NCBI GenBank assembly: GCA_000004695.1 | Contig: CM000153.2 | Coordinates: 96,001 to 160,000 of the forward strand | Reading direction: 5' to 3' | DNA: 64,000 nt | DNA from: Dictyostelium discoideum | Taxonomy: Eukaryota | Shown: in pieces, positions 53,067-61,165 of the stretch | Position numbering within the stretch: the stretch's first letter is position 1 | Layout of the letters: every line of letters begins with the position of its first letter | Translations under genes and position numbers: made by a program | The notes under the pieces: model-generated | Databases searched by the model: none | Told to the model about the DNA's origin: nothing | What the model saw: only the letters and a program-made list of their open reading frames with translations

Positions 53067-55575
53067 TTATCTAGTAATTGTATATTTATTATTACCACTT
53101 TTTAAAATCATTCCTTGATTATTTAAACCTTCTAAAACATCATTAAAATTTTCAAAAGGTAATTTATATTCTTTAACAATTTGTAAGAGTTCTTGTTTTG
53201 AAAAAGTTGATGTACCAGTTTTTGAGGCTTCTTTATTGAAAATTGAAATATATTTTTTAGATAAACCACTTTTACTCATACCAGTGGCTCTTCTAAAATC
53301 AATATTACCATGTTCATCTTCAAAAGTATCCAAAAGTGAATCTCTCATAATCTCTACGATATCGATTGCATCTTGTTCTGTAACGGTTTCACGTAATTCA
53401 AGTTTTGCTCTTGCTTCTGCTAAACGAATTAATGATTCCAATTGACGAGTTGTAACTGGCATTGAATCAGAACCTGTAGATTTTGAACGAAGTTCTAAAT
53501 AAAATTTTTGTATAACTTTAATTGCCTCTTCTGAAAGTCTTGGTGAAACATATTTCTTTGCATAACTTATATATTTTCTAAGGATAACTGTTGGAATTAA
53601 ATTAATCTCTTGACCATGAGTTATTAATAATTTTTGTTTTAATGGTAATGATTTATCATGATCTTCTTCATGAGTATATTGAGATGAATTTGTTGTTGCC
53701 GAGGATGATGATGATGATTGTTGAGGTTTTCTTTTTTTAACGCCTGATCCATTTGAATGAAGATTTAAAATATTATGAGAGATAATATGATCCTTTTCAG
53801 TGTTTGGTTTATCCATTAAAATGAAAATTAAATCGAATCTACTGAGTAGTGGTGCACTCATTTTGATATTTTCTGAAACTGTCTTTGCACGATTATAATG
53901 ACCCCCGACTGGATTAGCAGCAGCAACTACAGATGTACGAGCTGGTAAATTACAAACAATACCAGCCTTTGCAATACTAACCGATTGTTGTTCCATTGCT
54001 TCGAGTAGAGCAGGATGTTCATCTGTCATCTTATCGAATTCATCTATACAACAACAACCTTGATCCGCCAATACCAAAGCACCAGCTTCAATTGCAAAAT
54101 CACCTGAACCTTTTTCTCTTAACAATGTTACAGTTAAACCTGTTGTACTTGAATAGCCACCACAAACATAAACACCACGAGGTGATAAATGATAGATCGA
54201 TGTTAACATTTGACTTTTACCTAAACCAGGATCACCAACAATTAAAACATGTGGATCCGATCTAATTGATAGTTTATTCTTGTCGGATCCATTACTACTT
54301 CTATTTGGACTACCACCAAACAAAGCCAATGTTAAACCTGCTTTAACCAATTCATGCCCATAGATGGTTGGACAAATTGAATTTGAAATTAATTTGAAAA
54401 TATTTGGATGTTCAGCAATCTCTTTAATACCATACATATCCTTTAAAGAGAAGGAGGTAGTTTCAATCTTTCCTCCATTGCCACTAGTTCTCTTTGGGGA
54501 ATCTATAGAGTTTACATCTATATAAATGAGGAAAACAGGTTTATTTTGATTTTGAAAACCTGTTTCCTCTGCTCTTAATACTTTTACAACACCACTAATG
54601 GTCACAATATCGCCAGGTACAATAGTTTCAACCATTTCATCGGTGATTTCACATTCAAATGCTTTTGGTATACCACTTGATTCCTTTTGGTCGGCATCCT
54701 CTTGAATTCTAATTTTTTGCCAATCTATAGTGACGGCGGTTGATCTATCCGGTTCGAATATTTTACCTCTACAACCATGATTTAAACAATTTGAAGGAAA
54801 TGTAACTTTTCCCTCTGTAAAATATTGTGTTGGTGTACGTGTTGAACATTTATTACAAATGAATTGCATTTGAGTTACCAATGGTTTAACATTACCAACA
54901 CGAATTACAGTACCTTTTAATGAAACAAATTTATCAATAAGATTTGCTTTCAATTTCTTTAATTGTAATAATGGTTCAAAATGAAATATCCTTATATTTA
55001 TCTTTTTCTTTGGTCTTTGACTCTCTGAAACATTTTCATATAATACTTGATAAATTACAACACCTAAACAATTAATTACCATTTCTGAATCATCTCTTAA
55101 TCTAATTTCAAATTGATCTTCTACTCTATAAATTTGATTTTTTAATAATTGATAATCTAATGGTATTGTATTATTTTCATCTGGTGCATAAAGTGTCTAA
55201 AATAATAATTTTAATTAATTTAATAAATCAATTAATAATTTTTGTATTATTTAATTTTTATCTTACCTCATTACAAACATCTCTAAAAAGTGGAAGTGAT
55301 AATTGAATGAATTGATGTCTCTTTTCAAGTATTGCCTCTTGATTTAATTTTTCATCACCATTTTCAATAATTTTATTTGTTTTTGGTGGGAAATATAGTT
55401 TATATCCAATTAACTCATCCAATTGCGGATGTTGTTGTTGTTGCTGCTGTTGTTGACTTTGTTCTCTTTGTATAGTTTGTTGAGATTTAAATTGGACATA
55501 GTCATCACCTTCACTATTATTTCTTCGAATAATTTGTGTATTTGTGTTATTATTATTATTATTATTATTATACAT
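53067..55575 (-). CDS. mcm8: MCM8 (MCM-family AAA+ helicase, MCM8 subtype). Two exons, 55575-55267 and 55196-53067, 812 aa.
   Basis: Exon 1 (ORF 55258-55575) ends ...LFRDVCNE at the GTAAGA donor. The acceptor ttag|ACA gives TLYAPDENNTIPLDYQLLKNQIYRVEDQFEIRLRDDSEMVINCLG..., continuing into ORF 53067-55082. The MCM8-specific Walker A is GDPGLGKSQML, where MCM2-7 have GDP(G/S)(T/V)(A/S)KSQ. Long matches to human MCM8 include FAIEAGALVLADQGCCCIDEFDKM, ALLEAMEQQSVSIAKAGIVCNLPARTSVVAAANPVGGHYNRAKTVSENIKMSAPLLSRFDLIFIL and TTRQLESLIRLAEARAKLELRE. The zinc finger is CNKCSTRT...CLNHGC. Confidence 0.9.
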
Positions 55576-55836
55576 TAAACAAAAGAAATGAAAATAAAAA
55601 AAATTAAAAAAAATAAAAATAAAAATGAAAAAATAAAAAAAAAAAATTCAAAAAATAAAAAAAAAAAGTTTCTTTTCTAAGAAATATATTTGTTCCAAGT
55701 TTGTGTGTTTTTTTTTTTTTTTTTTTTTTTTTGAAAATAATTATTTATTTTTTTTGTACAGAGGAGATAAAAATCGGATTATGATTATAATTCTCCTTTA
55801 TTTATCGGAAGAGGGAAGAGGTTTTCGATTGTGAAT

Positions 55837-55869
<33 letters not shown>

Positions 55870-55993
55870 ATGGAGACGGGGCACGATTTAAAATATATTT
55901 TATTGAAGGTGGTATTACTTGATAAAAAAAAAAAGGTGAAATTATATTTGAAATATTATTATTATTATTATTATACTGTTATTGTGATTACTA

Positions 55994-56273
55994 CTACTTT
56001 TTAACAAAGAATTTGATTGATGCACCAATTACAACGGCAAGAATTAATAAAATCACAACGACTAAAATTATTATTCTCTTTTTTGATCTTGATTTATAAA
56101 CATATGCCTTTTCCAATTCTTCTACACCATATTCAATCTCTAAATCTGCTGTTGTAACATTATTATCTGCTTGAACTAACATTTCACCTTGTTCATCTAC
56201 CATCATTCTATATATTTTTTTTTTATTAATAATTTATTTATTTTAGGAAATAAAAAAATAAATAATAAATAAA

Positions 56274-56335
<62 letters not shown>

Positions 56336-56491
56336 AAATTTTTACTTTAAATCATCCATTGCACCTTTTAAATGATATATATCTTGAGCTAAATGTTTTG
56401 CTTGTTCATTTCTTTCGGATAATAAAGTTTCTTCGTAATCAAAACTCCCATCATCTTCAAGTAATGGTTGTTTTAATGGTACATATGACAT
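55994..56491 (-). CDS. Minimal syntaxin-like Qa-SNARE: a SNARE motif plus C-terminal TM anchor, with no Habc domain. Two exons, 56491-56346 and 56207-55994, 119 aa.
   Basis: Exon 1 (not in the track) is MSYVPLKQPLLEDDGSFDYEETLLSERNEQAKHLAQDIYHLKGAMDDL K with the GTAAAA donor in phase 2. The intron holds (AAT)17. The acceptor atatag|A gives K-MMVDEQGEMLVQADNNVTTADLEIEYGVEELEKAYVYKSRSKKR-IIILVVVILLILAVVIGASIKFFVKK*. The pattern ...MDDLKMMVDEQGEML... aligns with the syntaxin FMDMAMLVESQGEMI zero-layer Gln region. Confidence 0.55.
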
Positions 56492-57181
56492 TATTGTTAT
56501 ATTTTATTTTTTTACTAGTATTATGTTTTTAAAATTTAGCTAAAAAATTTAAATGTATTTTATTTTATTTTTTATGTCTTTTTGATTATTTTTTTTTTTT
56601 TATATTATTGAGAAAAAATAATAAAAAAAAAAAAAAAAATTAAAAAATTAAAAAATTAAAAAAAAAAAAAAAAAATAAAAAAAAAAATTGAAAAATACGT
56701 CACAAGATATTTTTTTTTTTTTTTTTTTTTTTTTAAGGTTAATTTAAATAATTATTAATCGAACAAATAAAAAAGTAATACATTTGACAACTTTACCTTT
56801 ATAAAAAATTTTAAATAAATTATAATTACTTTTTAAATAAATAAAAAATTTTAAAATTTAAAATTTAATAAAAATAAAATAAAATATTGATTAAAATTTT
56901 TTTTTTTTTTTTTAATTTTATATATCTTCTTTTTTTTTTTTTTGATTTTATCTCTTAAAACTATTATTACTTGTTCCACTCCAAATTTTATAAAAAAAAT
57001 AAATAAATAAATAACTTAAAAAAATAAAAAAAAAATAAAAATAAAAAATGTTGTCCTCCTAAAAAATTTTTCGTTTTTTTTTTTTTTTTCATTTTCCATT
57101 TTTTTTTTTATTTTTATTTTTATTTTTTATATTTCATTTTGGGTTGTAAAACGAAAACTTTACTTTCGTTCAAAAATAAAA

Positions 57182-59419
57182 ATGAATAGAAAAAAGCAAA
57201 AGAAATTAAGTTCATTAAATGTAAATATTTTTTATTTTTTATTTTTTATTTTATTTTTTCATAAAATTTAATCATTCCTAATTATGTAAATTATTGAATA
57301 ATAATGTAAATAGTGGAAACTTGAAAAAAATAAGAAAAAAGATAACAACAATGAAAATGAACCATTATCAAATATTGAATATATAGAAAACTTATCATTA
57401 TTTAAATTTAAACAATTAATAAATTCAGCAAGTAGTAAAGATGTTGAAAAAGGTTTATATTCAATTAATAAATTAATTAGAGATGAAAAAGAACGTGAAC
57501 CATCTGAAGACGATGATGATGATGATGATGATGATGACAATCAATTAAATTATAAGAATAAAAGATTATCAATTGTATTTGAATTTTTAAAATCATCACA
57601 ACAATCAATGACAGAAATTTTTAAGATATGGGATTTATGTATTGACAAATATCAAATTTATCAAAATGTTTATTCACTATTATTAGAGTTTATTGCAATT
57701 TTAATTACAATTAATGATGATCCATCACTTTCACATTATTCAAAAATTTTAGCTGATAAAATCCTCTCAAATAAATTTCAAGATTTATTAAAACTTATTA
57801 ATAACTATACTGATGAAACTGTTAATTTAACTTTAAATTGTTTTAGATTATTATCTTCAATTGTACCATTATCTTTAAAAATTGCAAAATCAATTCAAAC
57901 TAATATTGATTTTTCATCACAAGTAAGTTTTTTAAAAAAAATTAATAATTATTATTAAATTTTTTAACTTTTTTTAACATTTTTTATTTTTTTTAGGGAT
58001 TCCAAAAAGCAATGAATGATATTTCAATTAATGGTGCATATCTTGGAACAAGACCATATGTTTTAAGATTTTTATTATCATTTTTAAAACATCATAATAT
58101 TAAACTTAGTGAATTCATTTTGGAGAATGATCAATTACTTGTAAAATATTGTCAAAAATTACAATTGGACCATCATAATGTAATTATTAATTAATTTTAG
58201 TATTTAATTTTAGTATTTAATTTAATTTTATTTTATTAATTATTTAAATATATATAAATATAAATATAAATAAATATAGGTTATATTAGATTTAATTGAA
58301 TCATTAGAAGTTAATGTATTAAAAGTATCAAATGTTTCAAAAATTTTAAAAATTAAATTCTTTTCAACATCATTTTTATCAAAAATTGGTTTAATATTTT
58401 CAAAAGATGATATTGGTGAAGATTGTCGTCAATCAATTTTTAAATTTCTTTCAATTTTATGTTGTTCATCAACTCATGGTATTATATCATCTGATCCAAA
58501 GTATGTAGTAGTTATTATTTATTTATTTGTTATTTTTTATTATTTTTATTAATTTATTATCAAAATTTTTTTAAAAATTTTTTTAGATGGACATGGTTTA
58601 GAGATAATGAAAATCCAAGTTTTGAAAATAAATCATTAGTATCATTAATTTCAGAATTAAATCCAATTGCATATCAAACTCATCAAACATTATTTATAAA
58701 GATTATTAATTCATGTCCAGATTTATTTACATCATATTTGAAAAAGTTGGGAACATGTGAAGTATCGTTATCATTGAATTGGTTAAACAGAACTACAATG
58801 TTAATAAAGACATTATCATCACCAGTACCAAAAGCACCAATCACTAAAATCAGTGATAAACTATTGGACCCAATTCCATCATCACCAATTGTATTAATTA
58901 ATTGTTTAATACCACCACAAGTTACAAATTTACAATTTGGTTTCGATCAACAACATCAATTAGTAATTTATAATCAATTATTAGTTTTATTATTATGTTT
59001 AAAAAGAATAAATCAAGTTTTAAATTCATTAAATATTTATTTTATTGAAAAATCAAATAGTAGCAATAATAATAATAATAATAGCAAGGAGGATAAAGAA
59101 ATTGAAAAATTAAATCAATTTATTATAAATTTAAAAAATGGTATTAAAGAAAGGTTACCACAATTTAGATATTTTAAAGAGAATTATAATCAATTTAAAC
59201 AATCATCAGTATTATATAATCAATTCATTTCAATCATTAGTGAATATTTTAGATTCTTACCAATTAATGATTTCATTTCATTGAAAATGTTTGATTATCA
59301 ATTTTTATTAACATCAGATTTATATACACAAAAACAATTTATTCAATTAATTGGTAATTCAAAATCATTTCATTCAACTTTAAATTTATTTAATCGTACA
59401 AATGATAATAATAATAATT

Positions 59420-59474
<55 letters not shown>

Positions 59475-61165
59475 TGGTGATTCAATTATAACAATGTTAT
59501 TAAAATTATATTTAAATTCAAAATCAATTGAAATTAAAGAATTATATGGTCAATTAATATTTAAATTATTATCAACAAATTCAATATTCTCTGGTGTTGA
59601 TCATGAAATTGATTGTTGGTTAGAATCATTGCAATCAAATGAAAATATTGAATTCTTTGAAGGTACACTTATTAATGCTCATCAAAATAAATTTCAATAT
59701 GTTGATCAATGTCAAATTGAATCAAAGAAATTATTTGGTCAGGATTTAAATCAATTATTAATTAGTCCATTAATAGTGTCAACAATATTTCAACTTTTAA
59801 CAAATTCACAATCTTGTTTAAACCAACATCAATACATTTCAAATTTATTAAATAATATTTCAAATTGTAAAATTAATTCTTTAATAATTTTATCAATTTT
59901 TAATTTTATAATAAAAAAAATGAAAAATCAAGATAAAATGGATGATGATAATGATGATGATCAATCAATATTACCATCTGATTATAATTTACCAATTGAA
60001 TATAATGAAACTTTAAATTATATTTATTATAAAGCATATTCAAAATACCCAAAAGATTATAAAATTTCCTCCTCTTCTTCAAATTTTAAATCTCAATTAA
60101 TTTCATGTTCATCACCAAATGATATTAAATTTATAATTTCAAATAATATTCAACATTCAATTTTATCATTAATAATTTTAGAAATTGAACAACAACAACA
60201 ACAACAACAGCAACAACAAGAATCATTGAATAAATTATTAACAATATTAAAAGTTTCACCAATTAATTTAATTTTATCTCAAATTAATTTATTATCAAAA
60301 AATGAAAAAGAAATTTTATTTAAAAACAATTTAGTTAAATCAATTTTATTAAATTCAATTTCAAATTTATCATTAAAGAAATTATTCATCTTATTCCCAA
60401 TAATTGAAAATTTAATTGAAAATCATGAAAATCAAACTACAGCAACCACAACAACAACAACAGCAACTGAAGATATTTTAGATTTAGAATTTGATTTTTA
60501 TTTTGATTGTCTTGAAAAATCAATTAAAATGATTTTAGATTCAAAATCAATTTTATCATTACGTTTAATTGATCATTTATTTTCAAGTAAATTAATTTTA
60601 AATAATTTCTTATTAAACTTTAAATTTACATTTAGTAAGTATTTTTTTAAAAAATAATTATAATTATTATAATAATTTATTAATAATAGTTTATTAATAA
60701 TAATTTCTTTTTTTATTTCTTTTTTTTGTTTTATTTTAGATATTTCAAAATTATTATTAATAATTTTAAATAATGAAAATTCAAATAATGGTTTTAAATT
60801 TATAATACCATTATTAAAGAAATTATTAAAACAATTTAATAGTAAATCAATTAATAATTTCATTAAAAATAATGAAAAAGAAAATGATAAATTAATAATT
60901 TCAATCAGAGTTTTAGAATTAATATTACCATTTTTAGATTTTAATACTTGTATTGAATTATTAAATTCATTTAAAATTTTACAAATAAATCAATTAGCTT
61001 CAAATGAAATTATTTTACAAATTTATTTAGAAATTATAAATTCAACTTTACAATCAAATAATATCATTGATAATAATAATATTAATTTACCATCATACTT
61101 TAATTTAATAATTCCAAATTCTTCAAACTTGGATAAAAATATTAATAATAAATTATCAATTACAA

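Follow-up and report, generated by a model that had tools for sequence, protein, structure and literature searches.

Textbook syntaxins have an Habc bundle that keeps their SNARE motif auto-inhibited and to which SM proteins and tethers dock. To what extent it is needed is still debated, and that debate rests on deletion constructs. Here we describe a gene of Dictyostelium discoideum, DDB_G0283011, whose 119-amino-acid (aa) product combines a Qa-type SNARE motif with a predicted C-terminal transmembrane (TM) anchor and a conserved N-terminal peptide, and appears to lack Habc. The gene lies in a 64,000-nucleotide stretch of DNA (GenBank assembly GCA_000004695.1, contig CM000153.2, positions 96,001–160,000 of the forward strand), which we call the window and from whose first letter positions are counted.

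Several described systems resemble this protein in part. Bet1 and Sft1 (GS15) share with it a length of ~110–120 aa, the lack of a folded N-terminal domain, a single SNARE motif and a TM anchor, but they are Qc SNAREs (endoplasmic reticulum–Golgi). Yeast Vam3, an endolysosomal Qa-SNARE with an x-P-L-L motif like that of the short protein, undergoes AP-3 sorting through the acidic dileucine NEQSPLL, in which the Glu at position −4 is essential, and this sorting limits its site of action (Darsow et al, 1998, PMC2132875). The domain logic of the short protein (N-peptide, SNARE motif and TM anchor, no Habc) has also been engineered in syntaxin-1: Shen et al (2010, PMC2911676) report that Munc18-1 can still activate liposome fusion by a construct whose N-peptide leads straight into the SNARE core, so that such a design can be fusion-competent and remain regulated by way of its N-peptide. 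That construct is artificial and has the DRTxxL-type SM-binding peptide of an exocytic Qa.IV syntaxin, whereas the D. discoideum protein has LxxPLL and no Arg.

In the nomenclature of Kienle et al (2009, PMC2639358), the endosomal syntaxins Syx7, Syx13, Pep12 and Vam3 form class Qa.III.b. For D. discoideum, Additional file 5 of that work lists two SNAREs of the Syx7 type and three of the Syx1 type, without accessions; DDB_G0283011 may already be among them. The literature searched holds nothing on natural Habc-less Qa SNAREs or on D. discoideum syntaxin-7B (syn7B), the closest full-length relative of the short protein.

Results

Gene model

The gene occupies 55994..56491 on the minus strand, as do all of its features given below. 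These limits are the exact stop-to-start span of a two-exon coding sequence for a 119-aa protein. The ATG at 56491 starts a 49-codon frame, and we enumerated all GT...AG pairs that keep one open frame from there to the stop at 55994. Only one pair has typical signals (donor AAA|GTAAAAAT, acceptor TATATAG|A), and its product is 119 aa long; several other in-frame splice models exist but lack typical splice signals. Exon 1 (56346..56491, 146 nt) starts at Met1 and breaks off after the second base of the Lys49 codon; exon 2 (55994..56207, 214 nt including the TAG stop at 55994–55996) supplies the third base and continues to Lys119. The 138-nt intron between them (56208..56345, GT...AG, phase 2) splits the SNARE motif between layers −2 and −1. 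It is very AT-rich and mostly filled by an (AAT)28 microsatellite at 56249–56333.

The full product reads MSYVPLKQPLLEDDGSFDYEETLLSERNEQAKHLAQDIYHLKGAMDDLKMMVDEQGEMLVQADNNVTTADLEIEYGVEELEKAYVYKSRSKKRIIILVVVILLILAVVIGASIKFFVKK. It includes the string ...LAQDIYHLKGAMDDLKMMVDEQGEML... that had been singled out in an earlier note on this DNA, and its C-terminal end is KKR-IIILVVVILLILAVVIGASI-KFFVKK. The sequence matches exactly that of D. discoideum AX4 XP_639314.1 (DDB_G0283011, UniProt Q54RN7), an uncharacterised protein named "hypothetical protein" at NCBI and "t-SNARE coiled-coil homology domain-containing protein" in UniProt. The earlier note had joined a first exon to a 70-aa open reading frame (ORF) with a TM segment to reach 119 aa; splice enumeration and the match to XP_639314.1 show that join to be correct to the base. 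It had also called this exon cryptic, which is wrong because the product is identical to a deposited gene model in which exon 1 is already annotated. We take the locus to be a genuine, expressed-type two-exon gene.

SNARE motif and membrane anchor

The Pfam SNARE profile (PF05739) that the earlier note had proposed to search with matches residues 63–108 at 29.4 bits (E 8e-7), above its gathering cut-off of 26.8, and other members of the short family described below reach up to 56 bits. When the 119-aa sequence was searched against the PDB, the best matches were syntaxin-1A (E 6.5e-8, aligned through the linker and TM), syntaxin 13 and syntaxin 7. In this alignment Gln55 pairs with the Gln of ...VESQGEM... 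in syntaxin-1A, which we take to be Gln226, the zero layer. A profile built from 15 short-family members gave 36 PDB matches at E ≤ 0.01, and all of these are Qa SNAREs (syntaxin-1A, 13, 7 and 17, Tlg2, Sso1/2 and a Chaetomium Vam3-like protein) except three engineered constructs. No natural Qb, Qc or R SNARE was found among the PDB matches of either the single sequence or the family profile at this threshold.

All 16 heptad layers can be counted from Gln55, from A31 to A83. In the N-terminal half of the motif (residues 28–49, 56346..56410), placed by alignment to syntaxin-1A, 13 and 7 and by a layer table over the 15 short forms, the layers are −7 A31, −6 L34, −5 I38, −4 L41, −3 M45 and −2 L48. 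The C-terminal half (residues 49–84, 56102..56207) continues with −1 V52, 0 Q55 (codon CAA, 56189–56191), +1 L59, +2 A62, +3 V66, +4 A69, +5 I73, +6 G76, +7 L80 and +8 A83. Layer positions are hydrophobic or small across the 15 short forms; 14 of the 15 have Gln at layer 0, and 14 have Met instead of Phe at layer −3, as does syn7B. Two short forms from metagenome or Logan contigs, P0135 and P0139, have a zero-layer Gly for Gln (YEGRE and DEGRE) and keep the N-terminal peptide (LKQPLL and LRQPLL); they are possibly zero-layer variants inside the short family.

The anchor, read directly from the sequence, is IIILVVVILLILAVVIGASI (residues 94–113, 56015..56074), with the basic linker KSRSKKR before it and a six-residue tail after it. 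The linker aligns with that of syntaxin-1A (2m8r/3hd7), and the 20-residue hydrophobic stretch with the syntaxin-1A TM helix. In the AlphaFold2 model, residues 17–118 form one continuous helix and residues 1–14 have a predicted local distance difference test score (pLDDT) below 50. A C-terminal tail-anchored topology is thereby predicted. The syntaxin-type motif with a zero-layer Gln and the C-terminal TM helix of the earlier note are both borne out by these comparisons; judged by them, the motif is of the Qa type and its resemblance to SNAREs exceeds chance.

A protein of 119 aa without an N-terminal domain is typical of Bet1, Sft1 and GS15, and the gene might instead encode a divergent Bet1/Sft1-type Qc or a member of another small SNARE class. 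However, no Bet1, syntaxin 6/8, Vti1, SNAP-25 or natural R-SNARE chain appears in the PDB matches to E = 0.01, and Bet1 and Sft1 show no sequence kinship with the short protein beyond the generic SNARE motif in these searches. The protein is also 52% identical to syn7B (below) and shares the consensus QGE-x-L...NV-x-x-A...G-x-x-x-L-x-x-A with 93 long syntaxins. Membership of another class is therefore extremely improbable.

Full-length and short relatives

We searched 1.84 billion representative proteins exhaustively with a profile and obtained 2892 matches at E ≤ 1e-3. The best full-length match (E 9e-26) is a 287-aa D. citrinum protein whose D. discoideum orthologue is DDB_G0279133, "Probable syntaxin-7B" (syn7B, 286 aa). 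The 52% identity between the short protein and syn7B extends over 91 aa, comprising SNARE motif, linker and TM (E 3e-29). Close full-length relatives have Syntaxin_2 (PF14523) plus SNARE in Pfam. Among the best 150 of the 2892 matches 93 are long, and 92 of these 93 have a syntaxin architecture (Syntaxin_2 in 83, the Syx1-type Syntaxin domain, PF00804, in 4). Placed by its nearest neighbours, the short protein would be an Habc-less paralogue of endosomal syntaxin-7/Pep12-type syntaxins.

Like the short protein, syn7B has Gln at layer 0, the unusual Met at layer −3 and a short N-terminal x-x-x-P-L-[LI] peptide. Unlike it, syn7B has a ~130-aa Syntaxin_2/Habc domain followed by an Asn-rich linker, and its peptide is a canonical acidic dileucine with D at −4, where the D. 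discoideum short protein has Leu. The syn7B N-terminus, MTDRQPLI, fits both the acidic dileucine and, loosely, the DRTxxL consensus of SM-binding N-peptides. The syn7B locus (L003, 2001–2861) is intronless whereas the short gene has a conserved intron. The two genes thus share no intron, and a DNA-level partial duplication of syn7B via a shared intron was rejected.

Many proteins of 115–140 aa are interleaved with the long syntaxins in the profile matches and align from the first residues of the profile. Those with a species name come from Trinity transcriptome assemblies of Ceratiomyxa fruticulosa, Echinostelium bisporum, Difflugia compressa, Rhizamoeba saxonica, Flabellula baltica and Mastigella eilhardi (163 aa). 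All belong to Amoebozoa (Eumycetozoa, Tubulinea and Archamoebae), and the remaining members are from metagenome or Logan contigs. Three of the transcriptome ORFs are flagged "type:complete" by TransDecoder. A word-indexed protein search with the family profile added no new named genomes, which is not evidence of absence from Acanthamoeba, Entamoeba, Physarum or other dictyostelid groups. The short forms have a common layout: a disordered N-peptide, an acidic spacer of ~10–15 residues, a 16-layer SNARE motif, a basic juxtamembrane linker and a TM segment. R27, N28, L41, M45, Q55, L80 and A83 are invariant or at least 90% conserved in their alignment, as are L6, P9 and L10 of the peptide. In the dictyostelids examined, a full-length paralogue coexists with the short form.

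Orthologues of 118–119 aa are found in D. citrinum, D. firmibasis, D. purpureum and P. violaceum. The ratio of nonsynonymous to synonymous substitution rates (dN/dS, Nei–Gojobori) between D. discoideum and D. firmibasis is 0.17 at dS 0.51, and the remaining, more distant pairs give 0.19–0.31 with dS saturated. The short syntaxin gene is under purifying selection. Exon 1 has the same length and intron phase (146 nt, phase 2) in D. discoideum, D. firmibasis and D. purpureum; the position of the intron is fixed and its length varies (138, 109 and 56 nt, respectively). Conservation of the short form in D. purpureum, which the earlier note had suggested checking, is thus apparent in both protein length and intron position. 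In P. violaceum (L002, 6167–6280) the annotated intron follows nt 166 in phase 1, within the Gly56 codon just past the zero-layer Gln; this offset reflects either intron sliding, or loss and gain, or a choice of annotation.

The earlier note had considered a separately encoded fragment. The occurrence of short syntaxins in several amoebozoan lineages argues against this and against a species oddity, and we regard the protein as probably a naturally "stripped-down" syntaxin, neither a fragment nor an error of annotation.

The region ahead of the SNARE motif

Just 26 residues precede the SNARE motif. Neither Pfam Syntaxin (PF00804) nor Syntaxin_2 (PF14523) matches the 119-aa protein, and the AlphaFold2 model has no helical bundle. 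Such a product could also arise from a truncated gene model with Habc exons further upstream, or the locus could be a pseudogene or the decaying fragment of a syntaxin-7B duplicate. First exons of Dictyostelium genes can be missed in AT-rich DNA, and the Pfam SNARE score lies barely above its threshold, as would suit either account. The evidence at this locus and its orthologues points the other way.

In D. discoideum an in-frame TAA lies 5 codons 5′ of the ATG, and in-frame stops precede the conserved MSY start by 12 codons in D. firmibasis, 8 in D. purpureum and 3 in P. violaceum. The 5′ intergenic region (56492..57181, 690 bp, 10% G+C) has no coding potential; its longest open frame has 54 codons and is of low complexity. 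The upstream DNA has 10–12% G+C in D. discoideum, D. firmibasis and D. purpureum; in P. violaceum the figure is 26%. N-terminal parts that contain Habc were taken from seven close full-length relatives as tblastn queries, and none of them detected Habc-like sequence in the 64-kb window or at the three orthologous loci. The positive controls worked: queries of four other species recovered the syn7B locus, and the syn7B SNARE segment recovered the short gene.

The upstream DNA also differs between species. D. discoideum and D. firmibasis share the gene order MCM8(−)/SNARE(−)/Npa1(+). D. purpureum has MCM8(−)/SNARE(+)/Npa1(+), and there the 5′ side of the SNARE gene faces MCM8, not Npa1, because the gene is inverted in place. 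The P. violaceum orthologue has different neighbours and only 346 bp upstream. Since the upstream DNA is not the same, a conserved upstream exon cannot exist. Distant Amoebozoa have transcript ORFs of the same length, some of them flagged complete, which argues further against a truncated model. Intact splice sites and dN/dS values of 0.17–0.31 speak strongly against a pseudogene or a chance ORF, and the conserved intron, set against the intronless syn7B, speaks against a fragment of a syn7B duplicate. We consider this group of explanations very improbable.

The Habc domain thus appears to be absent from the short syntaxin, as judged from gene sequence and structure prediction. The earlier note had likewise proposed a form without Habc and had named upstream Habc exons as what would overturn it; the genomic sequence of the window and the orthologous loci gives no sign of such exons. 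The note's other ground for refutation, lack of a SNARE profile match, is contradicted by the Pfam match above. In the features compared, the protein behaves as a Qa SNARE throughout its motif and would depart from a syntaxin in the defining Habc domain.

The N-terminal peptide

Alignment of the short forms reveals the motif L6-x-x-P9-L10-L11 within the N-terminal peptide MSYVPLKQPLL (residues 1–11, 56459..56491). P9 and L10 are invariant and L6 is at least 90% conserved in 15 amoebozoan short forms, a degree of conservation equal to that of the zero-layer Gln. It falls in the segment predicted to be disordered (pLDDT < 50, residues 1–14). The description of the protein in the earlier note as essentially a SNARE motif leaves out this peptide and needs correction.

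The pattern in short forms is L-x-[EQ]-P-L-L, for example LKQPLL, LKEPLL or LTEPLL, whereas long paralogues have a canonical acidic dileucine, [DE]xxxL[LI], at their N-terminus (DRQPLI, ERTPLL, ERQPLL, ENEPLL). At position −4 of the Leu pair, 12 of 12 long paralogues have D or E and 15 of 18 short forms have Leu. The short-form peptide looks like a derived variant of the acidic dileucine of the long paralogues, and the Leu that most short forms have in common at −4 hints, no more, that they arose once and long ago.

Two known types of signal were compared with residues 1–11, and both were rejected. The first is the canonical acidic dileucine: a Leu–Leu pair in a disordered segment is present, but the Asp or Glu at −4 is replaced by Leu6. 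Because it lacks this acidic residue, the short-form peptide is not a canonical adaptor signal. The peptides of long amoebozoan paralogues match Vam3 NEQSPLL well. In Vam3, however, Habc comes before the motif and the SNARE motif after it, and position −4 is Glu, while the short-form motif is N-terminal and has Leu. The second is the SM-binding syntaxin N-peptide with the consensus DRTxxL/F, in which an Arg at the extreme N-terminus is followed four residues on by Leu or Phe; MSYVPLKQPLL has no Arg. Other short forms do have one, with variable spacing.

A conserved motif in a disordered N-terminus is what would be expected of cargo recognised by a coat or adaptor. LxxPLL might accordingly pack the short protein into carriers, where it would be a vesicle-borne, "v-SNARE-like" Qa whose single helix joins a three-helix acceptor on the target membrane, in the manner of Bet1 or Sft1. 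Its size and topology are those of small tail-anchored SNAREs, and the long paralogues have a canonical acidic dileucine at the same place. This reasoning is purely architectural, however, and the motif, with Leu rather than Asp or Glu at −4, is not a canonical adaptor signal; we regard a vesicle-borne Qa as improbable.

Neighbouring genes

The downstream neighbour (53067–55575, minus strand) is the MCM8 orthologue, with a main ORF of 671 aa and an upstream Asn/Gln-rich exon at 55258–55575. It is 79% identical to the D. purpureum MCM8 region, and its start codon lies ~420 bp from the stop of the SNARE gene. The upstream, divergent neighbour, which begins at 57182 on the plus strand, belongs to the Npa1/URB1 family (NopRA1) of ribosome biogenesis; it is a large gene and has several small exons at its 5′ end. 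The window ORFs 57608–57958 and 58738–60657 match the D. purpureum Npa1 gene. Comparison of window positions 55576–57181 with D. purpureum L001 5393–6805 and D. firmibasis L004 5328–6807 places the difference in orientation in a single-gene inversion of ~1 kb. Flanking inverted repeats were considered as its cause and rejected, as they are just opposed A-runs (55577–55667) and T-runs (57067–57140), typical of Dictyostelium intergenic DNA.

Discussion

The gene and its SNARE-domain annotation were already public; what is new is the ~119-aa architecture with a conserved N-peptide across Amoebozoa. From sequence comparison, we lean towards reading the short protein as a fusion-competent, constitutively open endolysosomal Qa-SNARE. 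It would take the Qa place in a Qa–Qb–Qc–R four-helix bundle on endolysosomal membranes. Because Habc is lacking, the closed, auto-inhibited fold-back should be impossible, which would leave the protein constitutively "open" and without an Habc platform for SM/HOPS-type factors. Where it acts would depend mainly on sorting, and the N-peptide would be a sorting or partner-binding signal. Candidate readers are an adaptor protein (AP) complex or an SM protein, although the peptide strictly matches the consensus of neither. We favour fusion competence because the full layer set, the linker and the TM segment are all under selection. It is also plausible because the N-peptide–SNARE form of syntaxin-1 is reported to respond still to Munc18-1 (PMC2911676).

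Several points weigh against this reading. The endosomal (Qa.III.b) assignment is drawn from nearest neighbours and so stays provisional. A neighbour-joining tree (72 columns, 100 bootstraps, reduced sequence set) has most supports below 50, for which reason we make no claim from it of one origin versus several. PDB profile scores at matched coverage separate the candidates marginally, with 49.8 bits for syntaxin 7 against 42.6 for syntaxin-1A and 53.7 for syntaxin 13 against 52.7 for syntaxin-1A. In vivo, deletion of Habc impairs the function of several syntaxins (Sso1, syntaxin-1), and because of this an Habc-less Qa could, by analogy, be a poor fusogen. The short-form peptide also lacks the acidic residue at −4 that AP-3 sorting of Vam3 needs (PMC2132875). 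The literature searched holds nothing on DDB_G0283011, and the role proposed here is read from its sequence.

Some of the same features would suit a regulatory or inhibitory SNARE (i-SNARE), as the earlier note had suggested. The short protein could bind the Qb, Qc and R SNAREs that partner syntaxin-7A/7B, in complexes that SM/HOPS factors cannot template or proof-read; it would titrate these partners, and endolysosomal fusion would be damped or spatially restricted. Its SNARE motif is of the same type as that of syntaxin-7B, without an Habc, and Habc of Vam3 and syntaxin-1 aids HOPS/SM-assisted assembly. A full-length paralogue with which it could compete coexists in the dictyostelids examined, and 14 of 15 short forms share with syn7B the Met in place of Phe at layer −3. 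Yet the sequence bears no non-fusogenic mark: zero-layer Gln, hydrophobic layers, basic linker and full-length TM segment are conserved. A pure decoy has no obvious need of a conserved N-terminal peptide, and the engineered N-peptide–SNARE–TM syntaxin-1 is reported to be fusion-active with Munc18-1 in vitro (PMC2911676). We see an i-SNARE as a possible but rather unlikely alternative to an open, fusion-competent Qa.

Nothing in these data points outside the SNARE paradigm. A syntaxin-7-type Qa reduced to N-peptide, SNARE motif and anchor is encoded, and maintained by selection, in several lineages of Amoebozoa, a natural short design that is the same as that of the artificial syntaxin-1 construct. 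A more speculative and rather less likely suggestion is that Amoebozoa keep dedicated, ancient Habc-less syntaxins in which a derived LxxPLL replaces both the auto-inhibitory domain and the canonical adaptor signal, giving either a Qa controlled purely by its delivery or a built-in competitor of syntaxin-7. As knockouts are easy in Dictyostelium and its macropinocytic, phagocytic, lysosomal-exocytosis and contractile-vacuole pathways are well assayed, the in vivo role of an Habc-less Qa and the reader of LxxPLL are testable there. If the suggestion is true, these proteins would be a natural test of whether Habc, and the SM/HOPS templating that depends on it, are dispensable for a physiological fusion step.

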